Source: Alphaproteobacteria bacterium (lineage in GTDB: Bacteria; Pseudomonadota; Alphaproteobacteria; UBA9219; RGZA01). From it: a stretch of 48,392 nt of DNA. The DNA is taken from assembly GCA_010031785.1 (NCBI GenBank), contig RGZA01000001.1:1-48392 (forward strand), given 5' to 3'. A model generated the notes under the pieces. The model saw only the letters and a list, made by a program, of their open reading frames with translations, had not been told where the DNA came from and did no database searches. Positions 7,261 through 44,493 of the stretch are shown one piece after another (within the stretch, counting starts at the first letter, position 1; each line of letters starts with the position of its first letter). Both the position numbers and the translations under genes were made by a program.

Positions 7261-7312
7261 GGGTAATTCCTCTGTGAAGCGCTATCATATAGCGAAATAA
7301 TGAGGCTGCAAT

Positions 7313-7782: not shown

Positions 7783-7832
7783 CTAAATGAAATTAATAGG
7801 CCGCGTTGTTCGTAAAAGCAATCTCTATAAAT

Positions 7833-26313: not shown

Positions 26314-26427
26314 ATTATTTGTCTTAGGACGTTTAGAGATGTCCAGAAAAAGCAGATAACGCCGTGTAAAACGAAGGTTTTCAGTGTAGGGTAGTCTGGA
26401 GTGATTTTTCAACATCCAGAAAAAAAC

Positions 26428-26476
26428 TGGGGCATAAATTGGGGCATAACCCAAGCCTCGGTAGAAAGATGCCCCA
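26428..26476. promoter_or_regulatory. three TGGGGCAT motifs just upstream of the integrase start, possibly arm-type or operator sites
   Basis: TGGGGCATAA occurs at 26428-26437 and 26440-26449 as direct copies. ATGCCCCA at 26469-26476 is an inverted copy. A separate pair of TCCAGAAAAA repeats sits at 26342-26351 and 26415-26424. Confidence 0.4.
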
Positions 26477-26478
26477 CT

Positions 26479-27690: not shown

Positions 27691-27701
27691 GGGGTTGAAA
27701 A

Positions 27702-28304
27702 ATGAAAAAGTCACATAATATGGGCAACAAAAAACTTCCCCAAAAAAAATGCTGCACTACTCAGCTAACTATTGATGAAAAACAGGAGCTTTTTGCTTTT
27801 ATACATTTTGATGTGTTGATAGATGATCTCGATGCAAGCCCTGTTCATACACTTTATGCTATACAGCACATTATAAACATTGGATGGATGCCTAGGAAAG
27901 AGTTTCTAGAGTATTTGAAAAAAAGGCTCGCCAACTACTGTAAAAAAAGAGACTGCACATTGGATACTGCATTTGGCGTCAAAGTAAAAAGAGGAAAAAA
28001 TGGCAACCCAAAAAATCAGATGTTTCGTAAAAGGTCGGATATACTAAAGCTACCAACGGAACTACTCGTAAAAAATATTATTTTATTAATGGCTCACAAC
28101 AAATTTAATGGCAGAACATATAAATTTCAGAACATTGCAACTGAAATTGAACATTCATTTAATGATTCTGATTTTGAAGACCGTATGCCTCAACGCAATA
28201 CGCTTTATAAGCATTTCAGGAAATTTTCTGGTGTGCGCCGAGTAAATAAACTCGTCGAATTTTATGAAAAAGGATGGCTGGTTTCAAAGAAAGTCAGACT
28301 TTGA
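27702..28304 (+). CDS. hypothetical protein (island orphan)
   Basis: 200-aa AT-rich ORF between int and alpA. I recognise no motif. Confidence 0.5.
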   Translation: MKKSHNMGNKKLPQKKCCTTQLTIDEKQELFAFIHFDVLIDDLDASPVHTLYAIQHIINIGWMPRKEFLEYLKKRLANYCKKRDCTLDTAFGVKVKRGKNGNPKNQMFRKRSDILKLPTELLVKNIILLMAHNKFNGRTYKFQNIATEIEHSFNDSDFEDRMPQRNTLYKHFRKFSGVRRVNKLVEFYEKGWLVSKKVRL

Positions 28305-28423
28305 AAGTTAGACTTTAATAATTTTATTTTTTGTACCCATTAGCCGCGTTTAGGTTCAGAAAATACCTCTCAATTGTCCATTAGGATGCTCTTAGTTTCA
28401 ACAGCAACTAAGGAGATTCCAAG

Positions 28424-28642
28424 ATGTCTAAACGCTTTATCCGTCTAAAAGAAGTGATCCAAATTACCGGCCTTGCGCGGTCAACCATATACGCGGCAAT
28501 CAAAGATGGAAGCTTTCCCTCCCAGATCAAGTTAACCCAGCGTGCCATTGGGTGGTCAGAGGAGCAGGTTTTCGAATGGGTTGGAAGCCGTCTTCCCAAA
28601 AAACATGAAAACGGCTCACAGCGTACAATTACCAAGCCATAG
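28424..28642 (+). CDS. alpA: AlpA-family transcriptional regulator / excisionase-like HTH protein
   Basis: 72 aa. The segment FIRLKEVIQITGLARSTIYAAIKDGSFPSQIKLTQRAIGWSEEQVFEWV matches the AlpA/Phage_AlpA pattern. An AAGGAG RBS lies upstream. Confidence 0.88.
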   Translation: MSKRFIRLKEVIQITGLARSTIYAAIKDGSFPSQIKLTQRAIGWSEEQVFEWVGSRLPKKHENGSQRTITKP

Positions 28643-28650
28643 GTGAACTT

Positions 28651-29193
28651 GTGGCAAGTAGGGGCAAAACCACACTTCCAAATGGTCGCAGCAGGAATCC
28701 TGATGGACGATATTTTCTTCTTCATGATTACATACTGCGATCCAAAGCCTATTTAGCCTTGTCCTGTGGAGCAAGATCCCTGTTAATTGAATTTATGAAC
28801 CTTCACCGACACTATAAAAATAAAGACGGCAAACTCATAGATAACAATGGAAAGCTCTTTCTTTCAGTAAGAGATGCGAGTGCAAGACTTGACTGCTCTA
28901 ACAACTCTACGAGAAAATATATGCAGGAGTTACTGGACTGGGGATTTCTCAAAATTGTCATAAAGGGGAGCTTTTCACTAAAGACCCCACATGCATCAAC
29001 ATTCATTTTAACTTGTCATCCCTATAAAGGCTCAGCACCAACGAAAGAGTTTGCTAAGCATGGCTTTCAAGAAATAAAGAAAAAAAATCAACGGTATCAA
29101 GATTTGAATGACACGGTATCAAATAATGATCTCATGTATGGCTATGAGATGGGTACGGTATCAAAAAGTGATACTGTACCCCCCAATACTTAA
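28651..29193 (+). CDS. hypothetical protein, possibly a winged-helix DNA-binding or replication-initiator-like island protein
   Basis: 180 aa with a GTG start. The segment LSCGARSLLIEFMNLH...LFLSVRDASARLDCSNNSTRKYMQELLDWGFLKIV looks wHTH-like. The 3' end of the gene and the downstream spacer contain the iteron cluster. Confidence 0.5.
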   Translation: MASRGKTTLPNGRSRNPDGRYFLLHDYILRSKAYLALSCGARSLLIEFMNLHRHYKNKDGKLIDNNGKLFLSVRDASARLDCSNNSTRKYMQELLDWGFLKIVIKGSFSLKTPHASTFILTCHPYKGSAPTKEFAKHGFQEIKKKNQRYQDLNDTVSNNDLMYGYEMGTVSKSDTVPPNT

Positions 29194-29219
29194 GACGGAG
29201 CAGTATCAAAAAATGATAC
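29091..29219. repeat. iteron-like cluster of four copies of ACGGTATCAA, two of them extended to the palindrome GTATCA-N5/6-TGATAC
   Basis: GTATCA occurs at 29094, 29116, 29158 and 29203. The perfect palindromes are GTATCAAAAAGTGATAC (29158-29174) and GTATCAAAAAATGATAC (29203-29219). Spacings are 22, 42 and 45 bp. Confidence 0.7.
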
Positions 29220-29322
29220 ACATATATTACCATCAGTTGTTTGTGGGCATCACGGATTACCAAGAACGCGCCGCGATGATGAACGATAATAAGCTGGCAT
29301 TTATAGATATGGTGGGGTGTGT

Positions 29323-29342
29323 GGTAATCAGTGGATATTACC
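29323..29342. promoter_or_regulatory. inverted repeat GGTAAT-N8-ATTACC upstream of ORF 29389, possibly an operator
   Basis: Read directly from the sequence. An additional ATTACC sits at 29256-29261. Confidence 0.3.
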
Positions 29343-29388
29343 GAATGCGGTGATAAATTTTTCAAATTCTCAAAATTAAGGGGGCTGA

Positions 29389-29790
29389 ATGTCACGAAAA
29401 ATCAAAGAACGTCAAACACAGGCGATAGCATTGCTATCTGGCGGGGTAAGCTGCACCAGCGTTGCCGCCAGCCTGAAGGTGACAAGAGAAACTATTTCAC
29501 GCTGGAAGAACGAGCCGCATTTCAGGGCAGAATTGAACGCCGCCACCGAAGATGCGCGGGAAACACTGCGAAGCCGATTGCTTGGCATGGCTGAAAAAGC
29601 CTTGCAAGTTATTGAGGCGGATTTGAGCGCAGACCAACCAAGCGATAAACGCAGCCGCACAGCCATCAAGATTCTTGAACTAGCAGCCAATGGGAAAATT
29701 GGCTTGCCAGAAGAACCATTGATCACAGACCAATGCACCCTTCAAGCCATAAAGCGGGAAGAAAAAAGCAAACAGGGCTGGATATTTTAA
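29389..29790 (+). CDS. hypothetical HTH-domain protein
   Basis: 133 aa. The N-terminus, RQTQAIALLSGGVSCTSVAASLKVTRETISRWKNEP, resembles a resolvase or terminase-small-type HTH. A GGGGG RBS-like motif lies upstream. Confidence 0.5.
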   Translation: MSRKIKERQTQAIALLSGGVSCTSVAASLKVTRETISRWKNEPHFRAELNAATEDARETLRSRLLGMAEKALQVIEADLSADQPSDKRSRTAIKILELAANGKIGLPEEPLITDQCTLQAIKREEKSKQGWIF

Positions 29791-29996
29791 TTAACAATTG
29801 GTTTTTGGATATTGCACCAATCCCGCCAAGCATGTTGCCGCGACTGTCCCCCATACTGATTTGGCTGCAAAAATCCTTGAAATGCACGCAATTTTGAAAG
29901 GCATAAAACCATTATCGCAATAGGCCATAAATGTTGATAATAAAGAAAGTATACACCCGCCGATTCATTGTTAGCTTCTAATAAGGTTTCCTTTGC

Positions 29997-32900
29997 ATGA
30001 CTACCATCCACGATCTATTAAATCAATTTCGTGAAGCCGCAACTTCAAATCGGGATTTAGGTGATAAGTTTGAAAGGTTGATCGCTAATTATCTGGTTAC
30101 TGATCCGCTCTATAGCGACAAGTATAGTGATGTGTGGCTGTGGGGTGAATGGCCTGACCGTGGTAACAAGCCTGATACAGGAATTGATCTTGTCGCTAAG
30201 GAGCGTGGCACGGGGGACTATTGTGCTATTCAATGCAAATTTTATGACCCCAACTATAATTTACAAAAGGGCGATATAGACTCTTTCTTTACCGCATCGG
30301 GTAAAGCCCCATTCACGAGCCGGATGATTGTTTCTACCACCGATAAGTGGAGCAATCATGCAGAGGAAGCACTTAGAAATCAAAAAACACCTGTGCAGCG
30401 TTTGCGTGTGCAGGATTTGGCGGATAGCCCCATAGATTGGGGAAAATTTAGCTTAAAAAATCCAAAAGATATTAAACTAAAACCCAAGAAAAAGCTGCGT
30501 GATCATCAAAAAACTGCACTCGCCAAAGTAGCAGAAGGGCTAAAAATTGCTGATCGTGGCAAGCTAATCATGGCTTGTGGTACGGGCAAAACATTTACAG
30601 CTTTGAAGATTGCTGAGCACATGGTTCCCGCCAAAGGGTGCGTGCTGTTTCTTGTGCCTTCAATTTCACTTTTATCCCAAACTTTGCGGGAATGGACGGC
30701 AGAGGCGGATGTGAAGTTGCATCCTTTTGCCGTTTGCTCAGATGCCCAAGTAGGTAAGCGTTCAGAAAATGAAGATATTAGCACTCATGATCTTCCATTC
30801 CCCGCGACCACTGACACCAAAAAATTGGTTGCTCAGGTTGAATTGTTCACCGTCAAAAAAGAATTGGTCGTTATTTTTTCAACCTATCAATCTATTAAAG
30901 TTGTCGCGGATGCTCAAAAGAAAGGCTTGCCAGATTTTGATCTAATTATTTGTGACGAAGCCCACCGCACAACAGGCGTAACGCTTGAAGGAGAAGATGA
31001 ATCCCACTTTGTTAAAGTCCATGATCAATCCTACATTAAAGGTACAAAACGCCTTTATATGACTGCCACCCCGCGTATTTTCAGCGATGGCACAAAGACC
31101 CAAGCTAAAGATAGCGATGCAACCCTGTGCTCAATGGATGATGAAAATCTCTATGGCAAGGAATTGCACAGGCTTGGTTTTTCAGAAGCTGTAAGCAAAG
31201 GCTTATTGTCTGATTATAAAGTTATGGTACTTGCGGTTGATGAAAAATACGTCAGCAAAACATTTCAAAAACAAATTGCCGATGAAAATAACGAAATAAA
31301 ATTAGAAGATGCTGTTAAAATTATGGGTTGTTGGAATGGCCTGTCTAAACGCATGGGCAGAGATTTAAGCGGCAATCCATTGGAGGCTGATGCAAGCCCT
31401 ATGCGTAGGGCAGTAGCTTTCTCACGATCAATTAAAGATTCAAAACGGCTTACTGAGCTTTTTTCGCAAGTCGTGGATGAATATCGTAAAAAGCATCAAG
31501 AGGAAGAAAACACCCTTGTTTGTGAAGTTGACCATGTTGATGGTACTTTTAATGCACTTGTACGCAATAAAAGGCTCGATTGGCTAAAAGCTGAAACGTC
31601 ACCAAATACTTGCCGGATTTTATCAAACGCCCGTTGCTTATCCGAAGGTGTGGATGTTCCTGCGCTTGATGCGGTGATGTTCCTAAACCCGCGCAATTCG
31701 ATTGTAGATGTGGTGCAGTCGGTGGGGCGTGTGATGCGTAAAGCTGATGGGAAAAAATATGGCTATGTAATTCTTCCAATTGGCATCCCAGCAGATATGA
31801 CACCGGAAGAAGCCTTAAAGGATAATCAGAAATACAAGGTTGTCTGGCAGGTGCTTCAAGCCCTTCGTGCCCACGATGATCGGTTTAATGCCACAGTTAA
31901 TCAGATTGATTTGAATAAAGCCCGCCCTGAAAATATCCAAGTGATTGGTGTGGGCGGTGATGTTGAGGGTGAGGGCGCAAGTGAAAATGGCGCGGATAGT
32001 AAACCAAAAAACACCCAGCATGTTTTTGCCTTTCCTAACATTGAAGAATGGCGCGATGCAATTTATGCCAAAATTGTCGTTAAATGCGGGGATCGCCGTT
32101 ATTGGGAAGATTGGGCAAAAGATGTTGCCCAGATTGCCGAACGCCACATCACCCGTGTAAAAGCATTGCTGGAAAGTTCTGATCAACAACACCGCAAGGC
32201 ATTTGATGAATTTTTACAGGGTTTACGAGATAATTTAAACCCAAGCATTAGCCAAGATGATGCGATTGAAATGCTATCCCAGCATTTGATTACCAAACCA
32301 GTATTTGATGCCCTTTTTGAAGGGTATGAATTTACAAAGCAAAACCCCGTTTCCATCACCATGCAAAAAATGCTTGATGTATTGGAGGATCAGGCATTTG
32401 ATAAAGAAACCGAGAAGCTTGAAAAGTTTTATGACAGCGTAAAACAGCGTGTAAGCGGTATTGATAGCGCGGCAGGTAAGCAAAATGTTATTAAGGAGCT
32501 TTATGATAAGTTCTTCCGTACTGCTTTCCCGCGCATGGCTGAACGCCTTGGCATTGTTTATACGCCTGTGGAAGTGGTTGATTTTATAATTCGCAGTGCG
32601 GACGATGCCTTGCGCCAAGAATTTGGCGTGGGCTTAACAGATAAAGATGTTCATATCCTTGACCCATTCACGGGCACGGGTACATTCATTGTACGTTTGC
32701 TGCAAAACGGCCTAATTGATCCCGCTGATTTAGCGCGAAAATACCAAAGCGAATTACACGCCAATGAAATTCTATTGCTGGCTTATTATATTGCCGCGAT
32801 TAACATTGAGGAAACCTATCACGGGCTTTCTGGCGGTAAGTATAAACCGTTTGATGGCATCGTGCTGACCGATACTTTCCAAATGGCTGAAAGTGGCGGG

Positions 32901-34787
32901 GCGTTACATGATAAAATGTTTCCAGAAAATAATAAACGCGTGAAACGACAAAAAGAAAGCCCCATTCGTGTTATTATGGGCAATCCACCGTACTCAGTCG
33001 GGCAAACAAGTGAGAATGATGCCAACAAAAATTTAAAATATACTTTTTTGGATAGCAGAATAAGAGATACTTATGCTGTTCATTCAACAGCAACAAATAA
33101 AAACAGTCTTTATGATTCCTATATCCGCTCAATTCGTTGGGCGAGTGACCGCATAACAGATAAAGGCATCATTTGCTTTGTCAGTAACGGGTCATTTATC
33201 GATAACAATTCGATGGATGGTTTACGCAAATGTTTGGTGGATGAATTTGCATCGATTTATTGTTTTAATTTGCGCGGTAATGCTCGGACTTCTGGCGAGC
33301 AAAGGCGTATGGAAAAAGGCAATGTTTTTGGTGAGGGGTCTCGAACGCCAATTGCAATTACTTTGCTGATCAAAAACATAGAAAAGAAAGGTAAAACTAA
33401 GCTTTTCTACCATGATATTGGTGATTATTTGAGCCGTGAAGAAAAGCTAAAAATCGTTTCTGATTTTGGCAGTACAAAGAAAATTGACTGGCAAAAACTT
33501 ACACCAAACGACAGCCATGACTGGATTAATCAGCGTGACCCAGCGTTTGATAAGTTTATTGCAATCGGCGATAAAGAAAATGAACATGAAGCTGTCATTT
33601 TTGATACGTATTCTAGTGGTGTGAAAACAAACCGTGATACGTGGGCGTATAATTTCTCTGATAGAAATTTGACAGCTAACATGAAGGGTATGATCGATTT
33701 TTACAATCAACAAACTGAAAGTTTTGAGAAAGACAGAAAAGGGAAAAATTTCAAATCAACCGATGAAAGGAAGCAAATCGTTGAAAATTTTGTGGACACT
33801 GACCCCACGAAAATTAGCTGGTCTCGTGGCCTTAAGGAAGACCTGAGCCGTTTTGTAAAACACAGCTTTTCTAAAAGCTCCGTTTTTCAAAGCGTATACA
33901 GGCCTTTTTGCAAACAGTGGGCTTATTTTAATAAAGATTTTAATGATATGATTTATCAAATGCCAAGGTTTTTTCCTGAAAATGGCATAAGCAATTTAGC
34001 TATCTGTATGACAGGGGTGGGAGCGAGTAAAGAGTTCTCTGCATTGATTGCAAATGTTTTGCCCAACTTACATTTTCATGATACGGGGCAATCCTTTCCA
34101 CTTTTTAGCTATGAAAAGTCAGTGCCCACAAATCAAATTTCTATGCTGGCGGATGCCAATGATTACCGCAAAAAATCTAATATATCTGATGCAATTTTGA
34201 TAAAATTCAGGGATGCTTATGATGGTGCGATTAGTAAGGAAGATATTTTCTATTATGTTTATGGCATCTTGCACTCACCTGAATATAAAACGCGTTTTTC
34301 TTCTGACCTTAAAAAAATGTTGCCACGTATTCCGTTGGCAAAAGATTTTTGGGTATTTAGTAAAGCAGGGCGCGAGCTTGCCAAATGGCATTTAAACTAT
34401 GAAACGATTGAGCCTTATAAGCTGACTGAGCACGCGGCAAAGCTAACGCTTAATCCAAAAACAGATTACCAAGTCAGCAAAATGACATTTGGTAAGAAGG
34501 ATGGCGCGGTGGATAAAACCACCATCATTTACAACAGCCTTATTACCCTTACGGGCATCCCGCTAGAAGCCTATGAGTATGTAGTGAATGGCAAGCCTGC
34601 CCTTGAATGGATAATTGAGCGTTATCAATTCACTCGTGATAAAGACAGCCAGATTATCAATGACCCTAACGATTGGTCGGATGATCCGCGTTACATCATT
34701 GACCTTGTAAAACGCATTGTGCGCGTAAGCATTGAAACGATGAAAATTGTTGATGCCTTGCCGCCATTAAACGAACGAAAAGATTGA
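29997..34787 (+). CDS. type ISP restriction-modification enzyme (single-polypeptide nuclease-helicase-methyltransferase-TRD, LlaGI/LlaBIII-like)
   Basis: 1596 aa. It has an Mrr-like nuclease (GIDLVAKE...YCAIQCKFY), an SF2 motor (MACGTGKTFTAL, IICDEAHRTTG, LSEGVDVPALD), a gamma-class N6A methyltransferase (ILDPFTGTGTFIV, VIMGNPPYSVGQ) and a long C-terminal target-recognition region. Confidence 0.85.
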   Translation: MTTIHDLLNQFREAATSNRDLGDKFERLIANYLVTDPLYSDKYSDVWLWGEWPDRGNKPDTGIDLVAKERGTGDYCAIQCKFYDPNYNLQKGDIDSFFTASGKAPFTSRMIVSTTDKWSNHAEEALRNQKTPVQRLRVQDLADSPIDWGKFSLKNPKDIKLKPKKKLRDHQKTALAKVAEGLKIADRGKLIMACGTGKTFTALKIAEHMVPAKGCVLFLVPSISLLSQTLREWTAEADVKLHPFAVCSDAQVGKRSENEDISTHDLPFPATTDTKKLVAQVELFTVKKELVVIFSTYQSIKVVADAQKKGLPDFDLIICDEAHRTTGVTLEGEDESHFVKVHDQSYIKGTKRLYMTATPRIFSDGTKTQAKDSDATLCSMDDENLYGKELHRLGFSEAVSKGLLSDYKVMVLAVDEKYVSKTFQKQIADENNEIKLEDAVKIMGCWNGLSKRMGRDLSGNPLEADASPMRRAVAFSRSIKDSKRLTELFSQVVDEYRKKHQEEENTLVCEVDHVDGTFNALVRNKRLDWLKAETSPNTCRILSNARCLSEGVDVPALDAVMFLNPRNSIVDVVQSVGRVMRKADGKKYGYVILPIGIPADMTPEEALKDNQKYKVVWQVLQALRAHDDRFNATVNQIDLNKARPENIQVIGVGGDVEGEGASENGADSKPKNTQHVFAFPNIEEWRDAIYAKIVVKCGDRRYWEDWAKDVAQIAERHITRVKALLESSDQQHRKAFDEFLQGLRDNLNPSISQDDAIEMLSQHLITKPVFDALFEGYEFTKQNPVSITMQKMLDVLEDQAFDKETEKLEKFYDSVKQRVSGIDSAAGKQNVIKELYDKFFRTAFPRMAERLGIVYTPVEVVDFIIRSADDALRQEFGVGLTDKDVHILDPFTGTGTFIVRLLQNGLIDPADLARKYQSELHANEILLLAYYIAAINIEETYHGLSGGKYKPFDGIVLTDTFQMAESGGALHDKMFPENNKRVKRQKESPIRVIMGNPPYSVGQTSENDANKNLKYTFLDSRIRDTYAVHSTATNKNSLYDSYIRSIRWASDRITDKGIICFVSNGSFIDNNSMDGLRKCLVDEFASIYCFNLRGNARTSGEQRRMEKGNVFGEGSRTPIAITLLIKNIEKKGKTKLFYHDIGDYLSREEKLKIVSDFGSTKKIDWQKLTPNDSHDWINQRDPAFDKFIAIGDKENEHEAVIFDTYSSGVKTNRDTWAYNFSDRNLTANMKGMIDFYNQQTESFEKDRKGKNFKSTDERKQIVENFVDTDPTKISWSRGLKEDLSRFVKHSFSKSSVFQSVYRPFCKQWAYFNKDFNDMIYQMPRFFPENGISNLAICMTGVGASKEFSALIANVLPNLHFHDTGQSFPLFSYEKSVPTNQISMLADANDYRKKSNISDAILIKFRDAYDGAISKEDIFYYVYGILHSPEYKTRFSSDLKKMLPRIPLAKDFWVFSKAGRELAKWHLNYETIEPYKLTEHAAKLTLNPKTDYQVSKMTFGKKDGAVDKTTIIYNSLITLTGIPLEAYEYVVNGKPALEWIIERYQFTRDKDSQIINDPNDWSDDPRYIIDLVKRIVRVSIETMKIVDALPPLNERKD

Positions 34788-34793
34788 AAAATC

Positions 34794-36245
34794 ATGAGTA
34801 ACATATCGGATTATATGGAGGACGGTGATGAATCTGATCTTCTTCAAAATGCGATTGATTCAGTCCAATTGGGAATTGAAGATTTTAAAAATGACGATCC
34901 AAAACGTATTTTATCAGCTTTTCGTAATCTTCATGCTGGCGTGTTGCTTTTATGTAAAGAAGTATTGCTGCGCTTATGTCCTAAAGATTCAAAAGAGGTG
35001 CACATAAAAGCAAAACAACAAGCCATAAAAGATTCTGATGGCAATATAATTTTTGTTGGTGTCGGTGATAATACAGTAACTGAGCATCAAATTATTGATA
35101 GATTTAAGAGCCTTGGAATTAAAACTGATCTATCCAAATTAAATGCACTCACTAAAATTAGAAATGACATTGAGCATTATTATTCACAAAATCTATCAGA
35201 AATTCAACCAAGGCGTGGTGGCGCAAAACTATTTAAAAATCTAAAGCGGGTAATCATTGATGAAATCTCAATGGTACGTGCTGATTTGTTAGATGCCGTT
35301 GATCATGCGCTGCAAATAAACAGGAAAGATGCTCGTCCATTCGGTGGTGTGCAAATAATTTTAGTGGGGGACTTCCTACAACTGCCACCCGTTGTAAGAG
35401 GTGATGAAGAAGAAATTCTAAGTAGCATGGGATATGAAACCCCGTTTGCCTTTAGTGCAAAATGCTTACAGAAAAATAAAGTTGTTACCATTGAGCTTTC
35501 AAAAGTTCACCGTCAAGATGATCCAGAATATATACGCTTGTTAGGCAATATACGATCAGGAGATGATTTAGAAGAAACTGTAAAAGCCTTTAATAATACA
35601 TGTTTTGGACAACATAAACGGGATGCCGCCCCCGTTATTCTGACAGGAACAAACGCTATTGCTGAAAAGTATAATCAGCGTGGGCTGAAAAGCCTTCCAA
35701 GCCAAGATGTGCTGTATGAAGGCATAATAAGTGGCGAGTTTAATCTTGATAAAGATAAGCTTCCTACGCCTGAGCTTCTAAACCTTAAAGTCGGTGCTCG
35801 AATAATGATGGTAAAAAACGACAAAGGTAAAAAGTGGGTCAATGGCTCATTGGGTGAGGTGGTGCGGCTTGGGCAGGATCGTATTTGGGTAAAACTTGAT
35901 GATAAAGACGGAGAGCATGAGGTAGCCAAAGCAGCTTGGGAAAACATTCGCTATGAATGGGATGATGAAAAACAAAGCATTGAAGCCAAAGTAGTGGGCA
36001 GCTATTCACAAATTCCCGTTATTCCTGCTTGGGCACTGACTATTCACAAGGCGCAAGGCTTAACGCTTGAAAATGTTCGTGTGGATTTGGCTACAGGCGC
36101 GTTTGCTTCTGGGCAGGCCTATGTTGCTCTATCAAGGGCACGCTCACTGGAAGGGCTATCTTTTGCCACACCATTGCGTGTTACTGATGCCATTGTTGAC
36201 AGGCGTCTTATTCAAAGTGAGCATAGCTTCAAACAAATCGATTAG
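34794..36245 (+). CDS. fusion ORF: N-terminal HEPN/DUF4145-like segment joined to a Pif1/RecD-family helicase that starts at the Walker B motif (no Walker A)
   Basis: 483 aa, starting 7 nt after the type ISP stop. Roughly aa 1-140 end in KIRNDIEHYY, an Rx4H motif. From about aa 150 the ORF is Pif1-like (VIIDEISMVRADLLD, GGVQIILVGDFLQLPPV, VHRQDD, WALTIHKAQGLTLE, GQAYVALSRARSLEGL). No GxxxxGK[ST] motif occurs anywhere. Confidence 0.6.
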   Translation: MSNISDYMEDGDESDLLQNAIDSVQLGIEDFKNDDPKRILSAFRNLHAGVLLLCKEVLLRLCPKDSKEVHIKAKQQAIKDSDGNIIFVGVGDNTVTEHQIIDRFKSLGIKTDLSKLNALTKIRNDIEHYYSQNLSEIQPRRGGAKLFKNLKRVIIDEISMVRADLLDAVDHALQINRKDARPFGGVQIILVGDFLQLPPVVRGDEEEILSSMGYETPFAFSAKCLQKNKVVTIELSKVHRQDDPEYIRLLGNIRSGDDLEETVKAFNNTCFGQHKRDAAPVILTGTNAIAEKYNQRGLKSLPSQDVLYEGIISGEFNLDKDKLPTPELLNLKVGARIMMVKNDKGKKWVNGSLGEVVRLGQDRIWVKLDDKDGEHEVAKAAWENIRYEWDDEKQSIEAKVVGSYSQIPVIPAWALTIHKAQGLTLENVRVDLATGAFASGQAYVALSRARSLEGLSFATPLRVTDAIVDRRLIQSEHSFKQID

Positions 36246-36268
36246 TCCTTTGGAGTTATAAGGTGGAG

Positions 36269-36288
36269 TGGGGCACTTTTGGGGGCAT
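36269..36288. promoter_or_regulatory. TGGGGCAC / TGGGGGCAT motif pair near the right end of island 1
   Basis: TGGGGCAC at 36269-36276 and TGGGGGCAT at 36280-36288 resemble the TGGGGCAT triplet beside the integrase gene. Confidence 0.35.
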
Positions 36289-36350
36289 CATGCTTGCAAC
36301 CACTTAAAAAGACTTTTTTAAATCAAATAGTTAGGCGTTGGATGTGTTTG

Positions 36351-36370
36351 GCATCCCCCCGCCATTTATT
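36351..36370 (+). repeat. degenerate direct repeat of the tRNA-Ser 3' end (putative attR of island 1 and relic att of island 2)
   Basis: GCATCCCCCCGCCATTTATT compares with the tRNA end plus flank TCATCCCCTCCGCCAATTATT (26300-26320). By hand alignment, 17 of 21 positions match with a single 1-nt gap. Confidence 0.5.
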
Positions 36371-36715
36371 AAACATTTATCGTTATATATCAATAGTTTA
36401 TAGTATAGAATAGAGTTGCAACCCACAATATAACCCACAAAATAGGGTTGGATTAAGGTGGGGTTGTGGGGGCTATTTTGTCCTAAATGTTGGCTTTAGA
36501 GATTTAGCGCTAAGTTGAGAGCGTCAAGGCGTGCTGATAAGGCTGGATGGCAAAAAACTCTGCGATCCGCCAGAAGTTATTAGGTGCGTGCTGAATTACC
36601 TTGAGTTTATGCAGCCAGACTCATGAAAACTCACAACAAGTTAAACGCTCATTATAATTGCGTTGTTGGTGCAATCCATTAAGTTGAATAAAATCTAACT
36701 CACCAAGGCAACGCA

Positions 36716-38170
36716 ATGTTTGAGCAAGTCTTCAAAAATATCGATGATGTGCTGCACAAGGATGCAGGCTGCACCAGCGAGCTGGATTATGCTGAGCAAA
36801 CCTCATGGATTTTATTCCTGAAATATCTCGACGACTTGGAACGCGAGCGGGCGATGGAAGCCGAGCTTGTCGGCAAGCCATACGAATATATCATTGATGC
36901 GCCATACCGCTGGGAATCATGGGCAGCACCCAAAGCGACCGATGGCACATTCGATCACAACAAGGCATTGACAGGCGACGACCTGCGCGAATTTGTGGAT
37001 ACCAAGCTGTTCCCCTACCTCAAAGGCTTCAAACAAAAAGCGGATAGTCCCGATACCATCGAATATAAAATCGGTGAGATATTCGGCGAAATCCGCAACA
37101 AGGTGCAAAGCGGCTTCACCCTGCGCGATGTGCTGGAACGGGTGGACGAACTGCGCTTCCGCTCGCAGAAGGAAAAGCACGAACTCTCGCACCTGTATGA
37201 AACTCGCATAAAAAACATGGGCAATGCAGGGCGTAATGGCGGCGAGTATTACACTCCGCGCCCGCTTATTCGCGCCATGATTCAGGTGACGAAACCAAAA
37301 ATCGGTGAGCGGATTTATGATGGCGCGGTTGGCTCCGCAGGCTTCTTGTGTGAAGCCTATGAATACCTGCGCGCCAGCAAAGAACTGACCACCAGCGATC
37401 TGCAAACGCTGCAAACCAAAACCTTCTATGGTAAGGAAAAGAAAAGCCTCGCCTATGTCATCGCCATCATGAACATGATTTTGCATGGTATCGAGACGCC
37501 GAACATCCTGCACACCAACACGCTGGCCGAGAATATCAGCGATATTCAGGAAAAAGACCGCTTCGATGTCATCCTCGCCAATCCACCGTTTGGTGGGAAG
37601 GAACGCAAGGAGGTGCAGCAAAATTTCCCCATTAAAACGGGTGAAACCGCTTCCCTGTTTTTGCAACACTTCATCAAGTCACTAAAGGCGGGTGGCCGCG
37701 CGGCGATTGTTATTAAAAACACCTTCCTGAGCAATACAGACAACGCCTCCGTCGCTCTGCGTAAGGAGCTGCTGACAAGCTGTAACCTACACACGGTGTT
37801 GGATTGTCCTTCGGGAACCTTCCAAGGTGCAGGCGTTAAAACGGTGGTGCTTTTTTTTGAAAAAGGTTCGGCCACGCGCAAGGTGTGGTTTTACCAACTC
37901 AAGCCAGACCGCAACATGGGCAAAACCAACCCATTAAACGATGAGGACGTGAAGGACTTTGTAAAGCTGCAAGCCAGCTTCGCCAATTCCGATAATTCAT
38001 GGACGGTCGATGCGGCGACGATTGACCCCACCACCTATGACCTTTCGACGAAGAACCCGAATAAGGCCGAGGAAGTTGCAGCCCGCAGCCCGCAAGCCAT
38101 CATCGACGAAGTATTGTCGCTGGATAACGAAAGCGCGGTCATTATGACGCGCATCAAAGCAATGCTATAA
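36716..38170 (+). CDS. hsdM: type I restriction-modification system methyltransferase subunit
   Basis: 484 aa with an HsdM_N-type N-terminus, motif I (IYDGAVGSAGFL) and motif IV (ILANPPFGGKE). Confidence 0.95.
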   Translation: MFEQVFKNIDDVLHKDAGCTSELDYAEQTSWILFLKYLDDLERERAMEAELVGKPYEYIIDAPYRWESWAAPKATDGTFDHNKALTGDDLREFVDTKLFPYLKGFKQKADSPDTIEYKIGEIFGEIRNKVQSGFTLRDVLERVDELRFRSQKEKHELSHLYETRIKNMGNAGRNGGEYYTPRPLIRAMIQVTKPKIGERIYDGAVGSAGFLCEAYEYLRASKELTTSDLQTLQTKTFYGKEKKSLAYVIAIMNMILHGIETPNILHTNTLAENISDIQEKDRFDVILANPPFGGKERKEVQQNFPIKTGETASLFLQHFIKSLKAGGRAAIVIKNTFLSNTDNASVALRKELLTSCNLHTVLDCPSGTFQGAGVKTVVLFFEKGSATRKVWFYQLKPDRNMGKTNPLNDEDVKDFVKLQASFANSDNSWTVDAATIDPTTYDLSTKNPNKAEEVAARSPQAIIDEVLSLDNESAVIMTRIKAML

Positions 38171-38184
38171 AGGAGAGTGATCCC

Positions 38185-38601
38185 ATGCAAGATATTCGCT
38201 GGAAGCAACGTTTTAATAACTATATCAAAGCCCTACAAAATTTGACAGAAGCTGTTGCATTGTCGCAAGAACGACCACTTTCAAAATTGGAACAGCAGGG
38301 ATTGATTCAAAGTTTTGAGTTCACGCATGAACTCGCGTGGAACGTACTGAAAGACTATTTGGAACATAAAGGAGCCGAGGGCTTAATTGGCTCAAAAGAT
38401 GCATCACGCGAAGCTTTTAAGAACGACCTGATTGAAGACGGCCTAACATGGATGGACATGATAAAATCGCGAAATCTCACCACTCATACCTACAACCCCG
38501 AAGTGGCCGAAAACATTACCATTGATGTGGTGGAGCGGTTTTACCCAGCCTTTGCAAGTATGGCTAAAAAATTCACCCCCATGTACGATGCGCAGGATTA
38601 G
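38185..38601 (+). CDS. HEPN-domain protein, HI0074 / nucleotidyltransferase-substrate-binding family (toxin of a HEPN/MNT pair)
   Basis: 138 aa. The start MQDIRWKQRFNNYIKAL and the segment FEFTHELAWNVLKDYLEHKG are typical of the family. The Rx4H motif is SRNLTTHTY. Confidence 0.85.
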   Translation: MQDIRWKQRFNNYIKALQNLTEAVALSQERPLSKLEQQGLIQSFEFTHELAWNVLKDYLEHKGAEGLIGSKDASREAFKNDLIEDGLTWMDMIKSRNLTTHTYNPEVAENITIDVVERFYPAFASMAKKFTPMYDAQD

Positions 38602-38604
38602 CTG

Positions 38605-40122
38605 ATGCAATACGGCCTTAGCAGCGATACCATTCAACGAATCAGCGGCGTGTTTTCGACATTCCCTGCCGTAGAAAAGGCGGTGCTGTATGGTTCGCGT
38701 GCCAAAGGTAATTATAAAACGGGGTCTGATATTGACCTGACCCTATACGGCGAGCAGCTCACCCCTGAGCTGTTGGGAGATATATCCGAAGCATTGGATA
38801 ATTTACTGCTGCCCTATACCATCGACCTGTCGCTTTTTGATGAGCTTGAACACGCCAAACTACGTGAACATATCGAACGTGTAGGTGTATCATTTTATAT
38901 GCGTGCGGAAACGAATACTCCGCGCGGTAGAAGCTGGCGGATGAAAAGATTAGGGGATATTTGTAAAACAGGGGCTGGCGGAACGCCGCTGACCTCAAAA
39001 GAAGAGTATTACGAACAAGGCACAATACCGTGGTTGCAGAGCGGCGAGGTCAATCAGGGTGAGATTTTTGCTGCTAAAAACTTTATCACACCGCTGGGAC
39101 TCGAAAACTCATCCGCCAAACTTTTCCCGAAGAACACGGTTTTAATCGCAATGTATGGGGCGAACGCTGGCGAAGCAGGCATACTTCGCTTTGAAGCATC
39201 CACTAATCAGGCGGTCTGTGGCATATTGCCCAGTGACTATTTTGAGCCAAAGTTCCTTTATTACCTTTTTCTTTCAAAATACGATGAGTTAGCGTCGCAG
39301 GCCGTGGGCAATGCTCAGCCAAACATCTCACAGGCAAAAATTAAAGATACGCTCGTGCCACTAGTAGATATTACCGAACAGCAGCGGATTGTGGCGGTGT
39401 TGGATGATGCGTTTGCGGGTATTGCGACCGCGACCGAGAACGCCAAAAAGAACCTACAAAACGCCCGCGAGCTGTTTGAAAGCCACCTGCAATCCATCTT
39501 CACAACCAAAGGCAATGGGTGGGAGGAGAAGAAGCTAGGCGATGTCGCACACCATTCTCTCGGAAAAATGCTTGATAAGGCTAAGAACAAAGGTGTCGCT
39601 AAAAAATATCTTCGCAACATCAATGTGCGCTGGCTCAACTGTGATTTGTCTGACCTTTTGGAAATGAGATTTCTGCCGGAAGAGGAAGAAAAATATACTG
39701 CAATCAAAGGAGATGTGCTGATTTGTGAAGGTGGCTATCCTGGTCGCGCAGCGATTTGGCAAGAAGACTATGCAATTCACTTCCAGAAAGCCCTTCACAG
39801 GGTGCGGTTCCGTGAGCCAAAATATAATAAGTACTTTGTATATTACTTATACTATCTAGAAAAATCGGGTTTGTTGAAGGCTCATTGTGCAGGTGCTGGC
39901 ATTCAACATTTTACTGGTCAGGCACTGCACAAACTTCCTTTAGTTATGCCTCCTCTGGAACAAATAGATGACATTGTTGCCCGCGTGGATACTCTCTCCA
40001 CCGAAACCAAGCGCCTTGAAGCCATTTACCAGCAAAAGCTGGAGATTCTGGCGGCATTGAAACAAGCTATTCTGCAAAAAGCATTTGCGGGTGAACTGCG
40101 CATGGATAGGTTGGCAGCATGA
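38605..40122 (+). CDS. hsdS: minimal nucleotidyltransferase (MNT, HI0073-like) fused in frame to the type I R-M specificity subunit HsdS
   Basis: 505-aa ORF. Aa 1-98 are MNT (VLYGSRAKGNYKTGSDIDLTL..., EHIERVGVSFY). From M99 (ATG at 38899) it is a normal two-TRD HsdS (SWRMKRLGDICKTGAGGTPL..., with conserved helices QQRIVAVLDDAF and ...LKQAILQKAFAGEL). There is no stop codon between the two parts. Confidence 0.8.
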   Translation: MQYGLSSDTIQRISGVFSTFPAVEKAVLYGSRAKGNYKTGSDIDLTLYGEQLTPELLGDISEALDNLLLPYTIDLSLFDELEHAKLREHIERVGVSFYMRAETNTPRGRSWRMKRLGDICKTGAGGTPLTSKEEYYEQGTIPWLQSGEVNQGEIFAAKNFITPLGLENSSAKLFPKNTVLIAMYGANAGEAGILRFEASTNQAVCGILPSDYFEPKFLYYLFLSKYDELASQAVGNAQPNISQAKIKDTLVPLVDITEQQRIVAVLDDAFAGIATATENAKKNLQNARELFESHLQSIFTTKGNGWEEKKLGDVAHHSLGKMLDKAKNKGVAKKYLRNINVRWLNCDLSDLLEMRFLPEEEEKYTAIKGDVLICEGGYPGRAAIWQEDYAIHFQKALHRVRFREPKYNKYFVYYLYYLEKSGLLKAHCAGAGIQHFTGQALHKLPLVMPPLEQIDDIVARVDTLSTETKRLEAIYQQKLEILAALKQAILQKAFAGELRMDRLAA

Positions 40123-41048
40123 GTATAAAAAGTTACTACCGCATCATGCTAGGCCAGAAGAGCGTTCATGCTGATGAGTGCTTTGCGGGCAACTTTATTG
40201 GAACAGATTTTGGTATTCATCAAAATCTTGCTCATAAATTGCCAGAGGAATGGCGCGCATTTAACAAAGAGTTCATCCCCATTTACCTTGCAGGTCATCC
40301 CGACAAAACCAAGATTAGTGCTGGTCTTGCTTGCGGTGCGCTATGGACAGTTTCTAAGGGCATACAGCAAGGGGATGTTGTGTTGTGTCCCGATGGTATG
40401 GGCAAATATCGTGTCGGTGAAGTTAACGGCGGATATTATTACGAAGAGGGAAAAATTCTGCCACACCGTCGGCCTGTCACATGGCTGAATGTTGTGATTG
40501 ACCGCGCAGAAATGAGCGAGGCGTTGCGTAACTCCACAGGCTCTATCGGCACAGCAAGCAACATCACCAAGCACAGTGATGAACTTGTTAAACTTATTGG
40601 CGGCGTATCTGCGCCTACGCTTATTTCGACGGACGCAACTGTTGAAGACCCATCTTCATTCGCGCTTGAAGCACATTTGGAAGAGTTTCTTGTTAAAAAT
40701 TGGGCGCATACTGAACTCGGTAAAGATTATGATATTTACGAGGAAGACGGTGTTAAGGCGCAGCAATACCAAACCGATACGGGGCCACTCGATATTTTGG
40801 CTATTAGCAAAGACAAAAAACGTCTTTTGGTTGTGGAGTTAAAGAAAGGCCGCGCCAGTGATGCAGTCGTTGGACAGACAATGCGCTACATGAGTTTTGT
40901 ACAGGACGAATTGGCGGATGATGGGCAGACGGTGCTTGGTGCAATTATCGCACATGAAGATGATCAAAAAATCCGCCGTGCATTATCAATGACGAATAAC
41001 ATCGTCTTCTATCGGTATAAAGTCAGCTTTAATTTGGTGAAGACATAA
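40119..41048 (+). CDS. hypothetical two-domain protein: unassigned N-terminal domain plus a C-terminal PD-(D/E)xK (NucS/DUF91-like) nuclease domain
   Basis: 309 aa. Its start overlaps the hsdS stop as ATGA, and a single nucleotide separates its stop from the hsdR start. The nuclease motif is TGPLDILAISKDKKRLLVVELKKGRASDAVVGQTMRYM. Confidence 0.7.
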   Translation: MSIKSYYRIMLGQKSVHADECFAGNFIGTDFGIHQNLAHKLPEEWRAFNKEFIPIYLAGHPDKTKISAGLACGALWTVSKGIQQGDVVLCPDGMGKYRVGEVNGGYYYEEGKILPHRRPVTWLNVVIDRAEMSEALRNSTGSIGTASNITKHSDELVKLIGGVSAPTLISTDATVEDPSSFALEAHLEEFLVKNWAHTELGKDYDIYEEDGVKAQQYQTDTGPLDILAISKDKKRLLVVELKKGRASDAVVGQTMRYMSFVQDELADDGQTVLGAIIAHEDDQKIRRALSMTNNIVFYRYKVSFNLVKT

Positions 41049-41049
41049 T

Positions 41050-43377
41050 ATGAATGAAGCTGAAACCCGCGCCGAGTTGATTGACCCCGCATTGAAAGCG
41101 GCGGGGTGGGGCGTGGTCGAGGGCAGCCGCATCCAGCGGGAATACCATATTACCCAAGGGCGGCTGGAAGGTGCTGGCAAGCGCAGTAAGCCCATGATTG
41201 CGGATTATGTGCTGATGTATCGCAACACTAAGTTGGCGGTGATTGAGGCCAAGAAGCGCGACCTGCCCGTGAGCGATGGCGCAGCCCAAGCCAAAACCTA
41301 TGCCGAGAAGCTGAGCATCCGCACCGCCTATGCCACCAATGGCGCAGCGGTTTACCGCATTGACATGGAAACTGGAGAGGAGGGCGAGCTTACTTGCTAT
41401 CCCACACCTAACGAGTTATGGAACATCACCTTCGCCAAAGAGAATGCATGGCGCGACCGTTTTGCTGCTGTTCCATATGAAGATAGCGGTGGGCAAAAAC
41501 CTGCGCGGTATTATCAAGACAATGCAGTAAGCAAAACATTAGAAGCAATCGCCGATGGCAAAGACCGTGTGTTGCTGACGCTAGCAACAGGTACAGGCAA
41601 AACCTTTATTGCCTTTCAGTTGGCGTGGAAGCTATTTCAAAGCCGTTGGAATCTAAGTCGTGAGCCAGTGCGCCGTCCGCGCATTCTTTTTCTAGCCGAC
41701 CGCAACATCCTTGCCGACCAAGCCTATAACTCTTTCTCCGCCTTCTCCGAAGATGCACTTGTGCGGATTGCACCTGACGAAATTCGTAAAAAAGGTCGTG
41801 TGCCGAAGAACGGCAACATCTTCTTTACCATTTTTCAAACTTTCATGAGTGGCACGGATGCCGAGGGTAAGCCTGCGCCAAACTTTGGTGACTATCCCCC
41901 TGACTTCTTCGATTTCATTATCATTGACGAGTGCCATCGCGGTGGTGCGAATGATGAGGGAAACTGGCGTGGGATTTTGGAGTATTTTTCACCCGCTGTG
42001 CAGCTTGGCCTCACCGCCACGCCCAAGCGCAAGGGCAACGTCGATACCTATCGCTATTTCGGCGACCCAGTTTACATCTACTCCCTTAAAGAGGGCATCA
42101 ATGACGGATTCCTTACTCCATTCAAGGTCAAGCAAATCGCCACCACGCTGGATGATTACGTTTACACACGCGATGACGAAATTATCGAGGGCGACTTAGA
42201 AGAAGGCAAGCGTTATACCGAAAGTGACTTTAACCGTATCATTGAGATTAAAGAGCGCGAGCGATACCGCGTGAAACTGTTCATGGATGCCATCGATCAG
42301 CGCGAGAAGACGATTGTGTTCTGCGCCACGCAAGACCACGCCGCTGCTGTGCGTGACCTTATCAACCAAACGAAGACTAGCCCCAATCCTAACTACTGCG
42401 AGCGCGTGACTGCCCGCGATGGTGCGCTGGGCGAACAGCACCTCAAAGCGTTTCAGGATAATGAAAAGACTATCCCGACCATTCTCACCACCTCGCAAAA
42501 ACTATCGACTGGGGTGGATGCCCGCAATGTTCGCAACATCGTGTTGATGCGTCCCGTAAACTCAATGATTGAGTTCAAACAAATTATCGGGCGCGGCACG
42601 CGCTTGTTTGATGGCAAGGATTACTTCACCATCTACGATTTCGTGAGGGCTTACGAGCATTTCAGCGACCCAGAGTGGGATGGTGAGCCAGTCGAGCCAA
42701 CCCCAACCACCAAGAAGGGTAGCGAAGGCACGGAAGCGCCCAAGCCAGACGAAGGCTTAGAGGGCAGTGAAGAACCAAAGCAACGCCCAAAGAAAATAAA
42801 AATCAAATTGGCGGATGGTAAGGAGCGCACCATTCAAAGCATGATGGCCACCACCTTCTGGGGTGCAGATGGCAGACCGTTGTCAGCAGCCGAATTCTTA
42901 CAAAATCTATTCGGTGAGTTGCCTGAGCTGTTCAAGGATGAAGACGAACTGCGCGCAATATGGAGTAAACCAGATACACGCAAGGCGCTGCTCGACAAGC
43001 TATCGGAAAAAGGGTTCGGCACAGAGCAGCTTACTGAAATCAAACGGATGATTGATGCGGAGAAAAGCGACCTGTTCGATGTGTTGGCTTACGTCGCCTT
43101 TGCGCTCAGCCCCATCACACGGCAGGATAGAGTTGCCAAGCAGAAGAGCCAAATTTTTGCCCATTACGAGGACAAGCAGCGCGAGTTTCTTGATTTTGTC
43201 CTGTCGCAGTATGTGAAGGAAGGCGAGAAAGAACTCGACCAAGCCAAACTGCCGATACTGTTAGAGCTAAAATATCAGGCTGTGGGTGATGCCACCGAAC
43301 GACTAGGCAGCATTGCCTCCATCCGTGGCGTGTTCATGGGCTTCCAGCAGTATTTGTATGTGCGTGACGTCATTTAA
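41050..43377 (+). CDS. hsdR: type I restriction enzyme endonuclease/translocase subunit
   Basis: 775 aa with an HsdR N-terminus (MNEAETRAELIDPALKAAGW), an SF2 motor (LATGTGKTFIAF, IIIDECHRG, QIIGRGTRL) and an EcoEI_R_C-like tail (SDLFDVLAYVAF). Confidence 0.95.
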   Translation: MNEAETRAELIDPALKAAGWGVVEGSRIQREYHITQGRLEGAGKRSKPMIADYVLMYRNTKLAVIEAKKRDLPVSDGAAQAKTYAEKLSIRTAYATNGAAVYRIDMETGEEGELTCYPTPNELWNITFAKENAWRDRFAAVPYEDSGGQKPARYYQDNAVSKTLEAIADGKDRVLLTLATGTGKTFIAFQLAWKLFQSRWNLSREPVRRPRILFLADRNILADQAYNSFSAFSEDALVRIAPDEIRKKGRVPKNGNIFFTIFQTFMSGTDAEGKPAPNFGDYPPDFFDFIIIDECHRGGANDEGNWRGILEYFSPAVQLGLTATPKRKGNVDTYRYFGDPVYIYSLKEGINDGFLTPFKVKQIATTLDDYVYTRDDEIIEGDLEEGKRYTESDFNRIIEIKERERYRVKLFMDAIDQREKTIVFCATQDHAAAVRDLINQTKTSPNPNYCERVTARDGALGEQHLKAFQDNEKTIPTILTTSQKLSTGVDARNVRNIVLMRPVNSMIEFKQIIGRGTRLFDGKDYFTIYDFVRAYEHFSDPEWDGEPVEPTPTTKKGSEGTEAPKPDEGLEGSEEPKQRPKKIKIKLADGKERTIQSMMATTFWGADGRPLSAAEFLQNLFGELPELFKDEDELRAIWSKPDTRKALLDKLSEKGFGTEQLTEIKRMIDAEKSDLFDVLAYVAFALSPITRQDRVAKQKSQIFAHYEDKQREFLDFVLSQYVKEGEKELDQAKLPILLELKYQAVGDATERLGSIASIRGVFMGFQQYLYVRDVI

Positions 43378-43591
43378 AGGAACCCAACTCTTCCTTCTGC
43401 TGCCGCATCGCCTGATTTATATTCTTAATAAATGCTCGTATCTCGCGCCATTTGCCACCTTTGTTGGCATTACGCGCTGCACGGATTTTACCTTCATTCG
43501 TGCGTGGGCCGGTGGATCGCGTCCATGGTTGCCATCGCCGGATCGCCTCGGCCTGTTGCGCCCGTCGTTCCGATGTCCATTCCTTGCTCAT
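43370..43591 (-). CDS. small conserved mobile-element hypothetical protein
   Basis: 73 aa and basic (WTSERRAQQAEAIRRWQPWTRSTGPRTNEGKIRAARNANKGG). It overlaps the 3' end of the preceding ORF in another frame, so it may be a separate gene or a frameshifted continuation. Confidence 0.4.
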   Translation of the reverse strand: MSKEWTSERRAQQAEAIRRWQPWTRSTGPRTNEGKIRAARNANKGGKWREIRAFIKNINQAMRQQKEELGSFK

Positions 43592-44297: not shown

Positions 44298-44493
44298 GGC
44301 TATCACCGCTTTCTTTGCGGTGGGTTTCGAGCCACTCCAAAACATCTTTCTTGGCAATCAGGCGGCGGCTGCCAACCTTAAATGATTTAAGCTCTTTGTT
44401 TTTTAGGGCTTCCCAGATAGTAGCGGCAGATAATCCCACCGCATGGGCAAGCGGCTTTACGCCATATGCCAATTTTTCATCACTTAACTGCAT
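44290..44493 (-). CDS. excisionase-family helix-turn-helix DNA-binding protein
   Basis: 67 aa. VKPLAHAVGLSAATIWEALKNKELKSFKVGSRRLIAKKDVLEWLE is an HTH_17/excisionase-like pattern. It overlaps the PrimPol start by 8 nt. Confidence 0.75.
   Translation of the reverse strand: MQLSDEKLAYGVKPLAHAVGLSAATIWEALKNKELKSFKVGSRRLIAKKDVLEWLETHRKESGDSHE

Follow-up and report, generated by a model that had tools for sequence, protein, structure and literature searches.

Type ISP restriction-modification (R-M) enzymes combine an Mrr nuclease, an SF2 ATPase, a coupler, an N6-methyltransferase, and a TRD in one polypeptide, and the portions of the literature available to us describe them as single-polypeptide R-M systems. 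In the SF1 helicases, ATP binding and hydrolysis depend on the P-loop and on the opening strands of RecA domain 1A. We searched the literature for connections among type ISP enzymes, Pif1-family helicases, and the PADLOC candidate PDC-S64. The searched literature contained no paper naming both type ISP and Pif1 and no mention of PDC-S64, and the combination of a Pif1-like helicase with anti-phage activity returned nothing relevant. In this study, we analyzed a window of 48,392 nucleotides from an Alphaproteobacteria bacterium (contig RGZA01000001.1), in which an intact type ISP gene is followed by an open reading frame (ORF) that joins a fragment of PDC-S64 to a fragment of a Pif1 helicase. 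The comparison with relatives revealed that this chimera is very probably a remnant derived by deletion and most likely inactive; it adds a new case to a familiar class of events, gene remnants fused by a deletion.

The genes lie in an island integrated beside a tRNA-Ser gene (26224-26313). A tyrosine integrase gene (26401-27690) comes first and is followed by an AlpA gene, an HTH gene, the type ISP gene, the chimera, a type I system, and a Prim-Pol gene on the minus strand. The type I system comprises hsdM, an NTase_sub_bind-type HEPN protein, an ORF joining an MNT nucleotidyltransferase to HsdS, a PD-(D/E)xK-like gene, and hsdR. The type ISP gene (29997..34787, forward strand) is the first gene of its operon and encodes an intact protein of 1596 aa. 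Pfam identified the domains Mrr_cat_2, ResIII, Helicase_C, ISP_coupler, N6_Mtase, and Type_ISP_C (E 1.4e-111) in that order, the PADLOC profile REase_MTase_IIG matched the gene over its full length, and the C-terminus aligned colinearly with relatives as far as the stop codon. The gene shares with the known type ISP enzymes their full architecture, from the Mrr nuclease to the TRD; the difference from those descriptions is that here, as in relatives, it heads an operon ending in Pif1, and the middle slot of this operon varies.

The chimeric ORF (34794..36245, forward strand; 483 aa with an ATG start) fuses its two fragments in frame. A sequence-only reading of the window had placed it directly 3' of the 1596-aa type ISP gene, and it is found there, with a spacer of 6 nt (AAAATC) between the type ISP TGA (34785-34787) and the ATG. 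The same reading had reported Pif1 motifs from motif II onward and the loss of the Walker A motif, and both observations held. All the motifs quoted were present in the stated order, namely LTKIRNDIEHYY at aa 119, VIIDEISMV at aa 153, ILVGDFLQLPPV at aa 189, VHRQDD at aa 238, TIHKAQGLTLE at aa 416, and YVALSRARSLEGL at aa 443, and a regular-expression search of all 483 aa found neither GxxxxGK[ST] nor any GK[ST]. The 13 codons at the N-terminal end (MSNISDYMEDGDE; 34794..34832, forward strand) have no homologue; family matches begin at query aa 13-16, and PDC-S64 members start at approximately aa 14 of the chimera. M1 and M8 are alternative starts, the latter having been chosen by one gene caller (P0001, 476 aa). 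Among 5.8 billion proteins searched, the sole full-length match of the chimera was itself (P0001/P0390), and all other matches spanned approximately 71% of the query. Promoter and terminator scans around the operon gave results at chance level. Downstream of the ORF, a noncoding gap of 470 nt (36246..36715), with ORFs of at most 44 aa, precedes hsdM of the adjacent type I system; no further gene remnant was detected in this gap, and tblastn gave no hit there when queried with the next ORF after Pif1 in locus L001 (167 aa).

The C-terminal part (aa 132-483; 35187..36245, forward strand) is a Pif1 helicase remnant matched by the Pfam families PIF1, AAA_30, Pif1_2B_dom, and UvrD_C_2. A helicase match had been recognized correctly from the letters alone, with its start set at about aa 150; our alignments moved the start to aa 132. 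The PIF1 family covered aa 134-257 of the chimera with a score of 65.7 bits (cut-off 25.9), but only over positions 87-216 of its 223-position profile; Pif1_2B_dom matched aa 326-359, and TIHKAQG and YVALSRAR were present. The remnant keeps motif II, the Pif1 signature, motif III, the 2B/SH3 domain, and motifs IV-VI. Bacterial Pif1-family SF1B helicases (PF05970; 8bns, 6s3e, and Bacteroides Pif1 5ftb) align to aa 132-483, and the best of the solved structures, 8bns_A, aligned its residues 82-425 to aa 132/133-483 of the chimera (E 3.8e-75). The chimera differs from these helicases in lacking approximately the first 98 residues, which leaves RecA domain 1A incomplete, with about half of it removed.

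The closest relatives of the remnant are intact Pif1 helicases of 417-461 aa with about 63-81% identity. All aligned close relatives contain GRAGTGK[TS] (Walker A), VAPTGVAA (motif Ia), and QTIHSFF. Where they carry motif I, motif Ia, and TIHSFF, the chimera has PDC-S64 sequence, and the Pif1 homology resumes at ...NLSEIQPRRGG, that is, at aa 132-133. The chimera therefore has neither the motif I nor the motif Ia/TIHSFF that characterizes a Pif1-family SF1B helicase. Because the P-loop is absent, as are the opening strands of RecA domain 1A, the protein is presumably unable to bind or hydrolyze ATP, and this domain probably does not fold. In an alignment of 28 sequences, the remnant showed 0 private changes at 345 ungapped columns, no more than its intact relatives. 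Scans of metagenomes and viral sequences with the Pif1 part mostly recovered generic Pif1 proteins of approximately 40% identity through the IIDEISM pattern, and the only close locus that they added was L011.

The N-terminal part (aa 14-131; 34833..35186, forward strand) is a fragment of the HEPN-like N-domain of PDC-S64. The PADLOC profile PDC-S64 matched aa 12-138 of the chimera at profile positions 6-134 of 305 (E 4.8e-27). A word-indexed search with the N-terminal 136 aa returned only two relatives. The family came to light when 1.84 billion cluster representatives were searched exhaustively with HMMER, which gave 641 relatives of the fragment; among the matches listed, all end at query aa 111-135. 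A word-indexed profile search recovered 1183 more relatives, essentially all of approximately 319 aa and annotated as hypothetical. Family members are typically 310-325 aa long (about 319 aa), and the fragment is 45-66% identical to them. The sequence-only reading had described a helical segment of about 140 aa in place of motifs I and Ia; the foreign part with homologues is aa 14-131, and it is not purely helical, as the family model contains a beta-hairpin between the helices.

The fragment carries the R-x4-H motif R123-N-D-I-E-H128 (35160..35177, forward strand), and the cut falls in the loop after the helix that bears RNDIEH. Alignments A2, A3, and A4 show no variation at R123, N124, E127, or H128, and these four residues are the same in all of 40 family members; R44 is likewise invariant, and N45 is nearly so. 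Beyond R-N-x-x-E-H, the family members continue with a conserved helix, more helices, and at least four Cys-x2-Cys pairs. Pfam matches to the family comprised zinc ribbons, with weak matches to DUF3644 (7/40) and HEPN_RiboL-PSP (3/40). The chimera thus resembles PDC-S64 in keeping all the invariant residues of the N-domain and differs from it in holding only the first 40% or so of the protein: the core helix 122-143, the linker helices, and all the Cys4 zinc ribbons are missing, so that PDC-S64 is not matched over its whole length from the N-domain through the helical linker to the C-terminal zinc ribbons. PDC-S64 domains also occur fused to other R-M proteins, for example, in an HsdM fusion of 735 aa (P0129). 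The plasmid collection yielded no match. Scanning viral contigs with the N-terminus yielded three ordinary family members, and the scans of these contigs gave only ordinary members of the PDC-S64 and Pif1 families.

We further investigated whether the N-domain of PDC-S64 is a HEPN domain. An AF2 model of an intact member, P0321 (pLDDT 89.7, pTM 0.80), comprises helices 3-19 and 23-48, a beta-hairpin at 59-81, helices 84-94, 100-115 (at the end of which RNxxEH lies), and 122-143, and after residue 143 further helices followed by the zinc ribbons. The top Foldseek matches of this model in the PDB were the HEPN toxins 8xeh_D, 8xdj, and 8yuf, and HepS (9oij) was also matched; the probability was 0.82 and the target-normalized TM-score approximately 0.5, with an E value of 0.4 that is not significant. 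Foldseek against viral structures with the family model found nothing. A comparison of the PDC-S64 family profile with PDB sequences matched only zinc-ribbon proteins (e.g., eL37) and no HEPN entry. The hhalign comparison of the family with the NTase_sub_bind HEPN protein encoded in the window was insignificant, although the R-x-H motifs of both were aligned. Like the HEPN-MNT (HepT/MntA) toxins 8xeh, 8xdj, and 8yuf, the PDC-S64 N-domain has an R-x4-H motif with a polar residue after the Arg; it differs from HepT in its beta-hairpin insertion and its zinc-ribbon tail, which are not HepT features, and the fragment has no cognate MNT partner here.

From the motif and the model, a HEPN-like N-domain in PDC-S64 is plausible but not proven. 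The fragment contains the R-x4-6-H motif of the HEPN superfamily as R123-N-D-I-E-H128, and the HEPN half of the earlier HEPN/DUF4145 label is plausible. The DUF4145 half found no support: the chimera had no match to DUF4145 (Pfam PF13643) at E values up to 0.1, and when the 40 family members were compared with Pfam at E values up to 1, DUF4145 was not one of the 25 families matched most often. The chimera also lacks a complete HEPN bundle. Its PDC-S64 part ends at the equivalent of approximately residue 118 of P0321, in the loop before the core helix 122-143, and this deleted helix bears the conserved residues F133, R137, and F139. Judging from the model, a HEPN-like bundle deprived of one core helix would probably be unstable and would probably not form an active site.

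The origin of the fusion was traced by comparison with locus L258, in which a type ISP gene (1600 aa), an 8-nt spacer, a 325-aa PDC-S64 gene, a 5-nt spacer, and a Pif1 gene (451 aa) follow one another in the same order and on the same strand as in the window. The protein of 325 aa matches PDC-S64 over its full length (PADLOC E 3.8e-42, positions 9-285 of the 305 in the profile) and is 66% identical to aa 14-133 of the chimera; the Pif1 protein is 79% identical to aa 132-483 and has its Walker A motif at residue 49. At the nucleotide level, window positions 29997-35032 aligned with L258 positions 1216-6222 as one block of 71% identity spanning the type ISP gene, the spacer, and approximately 240 nt of the PDC-S64 gene, and positions 35199-36178 aligned with 7307-8286 at 70.5% identity. 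The counterpart of L258 positions 6378-7294 (917 nt) is missing in the window. This interval runs from PDC-S64 codon 121 through the end of that gene (codon 325) and the spacer to Pif1 codon 98. The sequence-only reading had offered, as one of two possibilities, the scar of a deletion that fused two adjacent defense genes, and relatives with two separate intact genes at this position had been set beforehand as the sign of a deletion pseudogene; L258, with intact PDC-S64 and Pif1 genes after a type ISP gene, is such a relative and supports the deletion.

Codon comparison with L258 placed the deletion breakpoint at codons 131-133 (TCA CAA AAT; 35184..35192, forward strand), and the nucleotide homology to the Pif1 gene of L001 begins at 35187. 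At the breakpoint, the L258 PDC-S64 gene reads ...TAT TAC ACC AGC AAC CCG, the L258 Pif1 gene reads ...CGC CTG CAC AAC CTT GAT, and the window reads ...TAT TAT TCA CAA AAT CTA TCA. Both L258 genes thus read ...C AAC (Asn) at this point, which may reflect a microhomology-mediated deletion; the shared bases are only suggestive, and the breakpoints are approximate, because L258 is a diverged cousin (its genes are 66-79% identical to those of the window) rather than the direct ancestor.

The distribution of the junction was then examined. Apart from the window, only three metagenome contigs (L004-L006) carry the chimera, in the same island and with 99.97-100% DNA identity, and its 90% cluster contains only two start-codon variants of the same protein. 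The chimera sequence showed no variation among the four copies. Among the listed matches of the exhaustive and word-indexed searches, which together recovered more than 1,800 PDC-S64 relatives, none had the junction; 0 of the 120 listed relatives from the word search had a Pif1 domain, and 0 of the 80 genome loci had a Pif1 or type ISP sequence within 10 kb of the PDC-S64 relative. Full-length homologues sharing the junction, for which a search had been proposed, are therefore confined to one near-clonal lineage represented by four assemblies. An assembly or sequencing artefact, whether a chimeric contig or a collapsed region, is scarcely credible, given that the identical junction occurs in four assemblies from different samples and assemblers and that nothing specific points to such an error apart from a local discrepancy in L006 inside the type ISP gene.

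These findings suggest the following course of events. The ancestral operon would have had three genes, encoding the type ISP enzyme, then PDC-S64 with its HEPN-like domain and zinc ribbons, and then Pif1. A single in-frame deletion of approximately 0.9 kb inside this operon, shown by the comparison with L258 and most likely recent, joined PDC-S64 codon 131 or thereabouts to the equivalent of approximately Pif1 codon 99, possibly through a few bases of microhomology. The product keeps the R-x4-H motif but no longer has the final core helix of the HEPN-like domain, the linker helices, or any zinc ribbon, and on the helicase side the parts of RecA domain 1A that bear Walker A and motif Ia, strands as well as loops, are gone. 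Such a protein would probably adopt the fold of neither parent and is probably a nonfunctional remnant, whereas the upstream type ISP gene, being intact, presumably still works alone. The absence of decay, together with the absence of variation among the four copies, indicates a recent event rather than long-term maintenance, and the frame is probably still open only because the deletion is recent.

The other possibility raised by the sequence-only reading was a new effector in which a HEPN domain and a degenerate helicase work with the type ISP enzyme. In its fullest form, the fusion would be a selected functional effector, with a HEPN-like RNase module carried on a catalytically dead Pif1 scaffold, whose domains 2A and 2B would still bind DNA, and acting together with the translocase of type ISP. 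In favor of this reading, the frame is kept across the fusion, the ATG lies 6 nt past the type ISP stop codon, R44/N45 and R123-N-x-x-E-H128 are kept, the helicase remnant is free of decay, and the HsdM fusion P0129 demonstrates that PDC-S64 domains are joined to other R-M proteins. We nevertheless consider such an effector improbable. Its junction is absent from all other sequences searched, so that it exists in one near-clonal lineage; the cut runs inside both core folds, removing helix 122-143 from one and about half of RecA domain 1A from the other; and both genes are separate and intact in L258. Since approximately one third of random deletions are in frame, the open frame is weak evidence. 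We regard as similarly improbable a variant in which the HEPN-like fragment, tethered to the DNA-binding 2A/2B domains, has been kept because it assists the type ISP enzyme as a new accessory factor or regulates it in a dominant-negative manner.

The frame remains open over 483 codons, with every surviving family-invariant residue retained, and this observation runs against a remnant. Taken alone, an open frame and kept residues are also what is expected of a selected functional fusion.

We also considered a cassette swap, in which the 5' third of Pif1 in a two-gene operon of type ISP and Pif1 was replaced by a PDC-S64 fragment through two illegitimate recombinations. This history is consistent with L001, L009, and L092, where the type ISP gene is followed directly by Pif1 with nothing between them, and with the G+C content of the PDC-S64 fragment, which is the lowest in the operon (0.33 compared with 0.36-0.47). 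It is, however, very unlikely, since it requires two precise illegitimate events instead of one deletion, the three-gene order from which one deletion is enough exists in L258, and the alignment of the window with L258 is unbroken from the type ISP gene through the spacer and on into the PDC-S64 gene.

As a deletion-derived remnant, the chimera in itself adds one more defense-island gene pair collapsed by deletion, and it cautions against reading domain fusions confined to a single lineage as new architectures. Tracing its origin was more useful, as this revealed a tight Pif1 subfamily that ends operons headed by ATP-dependent translocating restriction enzymes. Pif1 relatives lie directly 3' of type ISP genes in L001-L003 (4-nt spacer), L009 and L010 (8-nt spacer), and L011; in L092 the Pif1 start overlaps the type ISP stop (ATGA), and in L091 the Pif1 relative directly follows a type I hsdR. 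Counted by distinct lineage, Pif1 closes the operon of a translocating restriction enzyme in five cases of type ISP and one of type I, and the spacers measure -4 to 9 nt. Conservation is much stronger in the helicase than in the preceding restriction enzyme: between L009 and the window, the Pif1 proteins are 81% identical and the restriction enzymes 52%.

The undeleted operon (type ISP, a variable slot, and Pif1) may be a functional multicomponent defense module, and this is more likely than a functional chimera. The translocating restriction enzyme may work with a dedicated 5'-3' helicase. A conserved helicase partner, if real, would be a testable addition to how type ISP enzymes act in vivo, because the parts of the literature accessible to us treat them as self-sufficient single polypeptides. 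Such a partner operon would also give the PDC-S64 candidate a first genomic context. The slot between the restriction enzyme and Pif1 is empty in some operons, is occupied by PDC-S64 in L258, and holds a 214-aa gene and a GIY-YIG-like gene in L259. One further Pif1 relative (L008) lies in a defense island without an R-M system, and three more distant relatives, with 67-72% identity, were found in nondefense contexts.

Sequence comparison identified a tight subfamily of Pif1 proteins exhibiting 71-81% identity to the Pif1 remnant of the chimera, the window ORF in which a PDC-S64 fragment is joined to that remnant. In the loci listed here, the Pif1 gene of this subfamily was the final gene of an operon whose first gene encoded type ISP or HsdR (L001:5218-11353, L009:5109-11281, L092:3-5206, L258:1207-8356, L259:2091-9353, and L091:4954-9359), with spacers of -4 to 9 nt. 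The heads of these operons were type ISP in five distinct lineages and type I HsdR in one. The Pif1 protein was far more strongly conserved than the ISP enzyme preceding it; the L009 and window proteins shared 81% identity in Pif1, whereas the ISP identity was 52%. Within the library searched, "type ISP" and "Pif1" were not found together in any paper. In the L001 lineage (L001, L002, and L003), a 167-aa ORF overlapped the Pif1 stop codon (L001:11353-11856) and matched no entry in Pfam or PADLOC, and the 470-nt gap at 36246-36715 of the window contained no counterpart of it.

What lies between the ISP gene and the Pif1 gene differed among the loci. This slot was empty in L001, L009, and L092, was occupied by an intact PDC-S64 gene in L258 (6018-6995), and held two genes in L259 (6875-7992), one encoding a 214-aa protein that returned no hits and the other a 156-aa protein that weakly matched GIY-YIG. 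L091 likewise contained a small GIY-YIG gene, located 5' of hsdR. The G+C content of the PDC-S64 fragment (window 34800-35199) was 0.33, the minimum of the operon, compared with 0.36-0.47 in the ISP gene and the Pif1 remnant. This low value hints that the gene in the middle slot was acquired separately from its neighbors.

The PDC-S64 domain was found as a C-terminal fusion on type I HsdM methyltransferases or was encoded immediately 3' of hsdM (proteins P0129, P0218, and P0266, of 729-735 aa, and P0125; locus L110:3438-5090). The family is therefore recurrently tied to R-M systems; it was a stand-alone gene in most of the 80 genome loci.

Of the three near-identical metagenome contigs, L006 has an ISP gene that was called as two ORFs of 736 and 838 aa because approximately 41 nt of the window (32191-32231) were replaced by approximately 10 nt (L006:2356-2365). 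This discrepancy reflects either a scaffolding gap or a real inactivating ISP lesion in that population.

The defence genes of the window are located on an integrative island at tRNA-Ser (26224-44357). There, genes for a tyrosine integrase, AlpA, and an HTH protein are followed by the type ISP gene, the chimera, a type I R-M system that includes an additional PD-(D/E)xK gene (NucS_C/YhcG-like, 40119-41048), and a Prim-Pol gene (43494-44357, minus strand). Within the type I operon, a single 505-aa ORF (38605-40122, plus strand) encodes both an MNT-type nucleotidyltransferase domain (aa 12-102) and a two-TRD HsdS, each of them complete, and an NTase_sub_bind-type HEPN protein is encoded 5' of this ORF (38185-38601). 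This arrangement looks like a HEPN/MNT toxin-antitoxin pair inside the operon whose antitoxin forms one polypeptide with the specificity subunit, and the MNT-HsdS ORF may represent a second fusion event on the island that carries the chimera.
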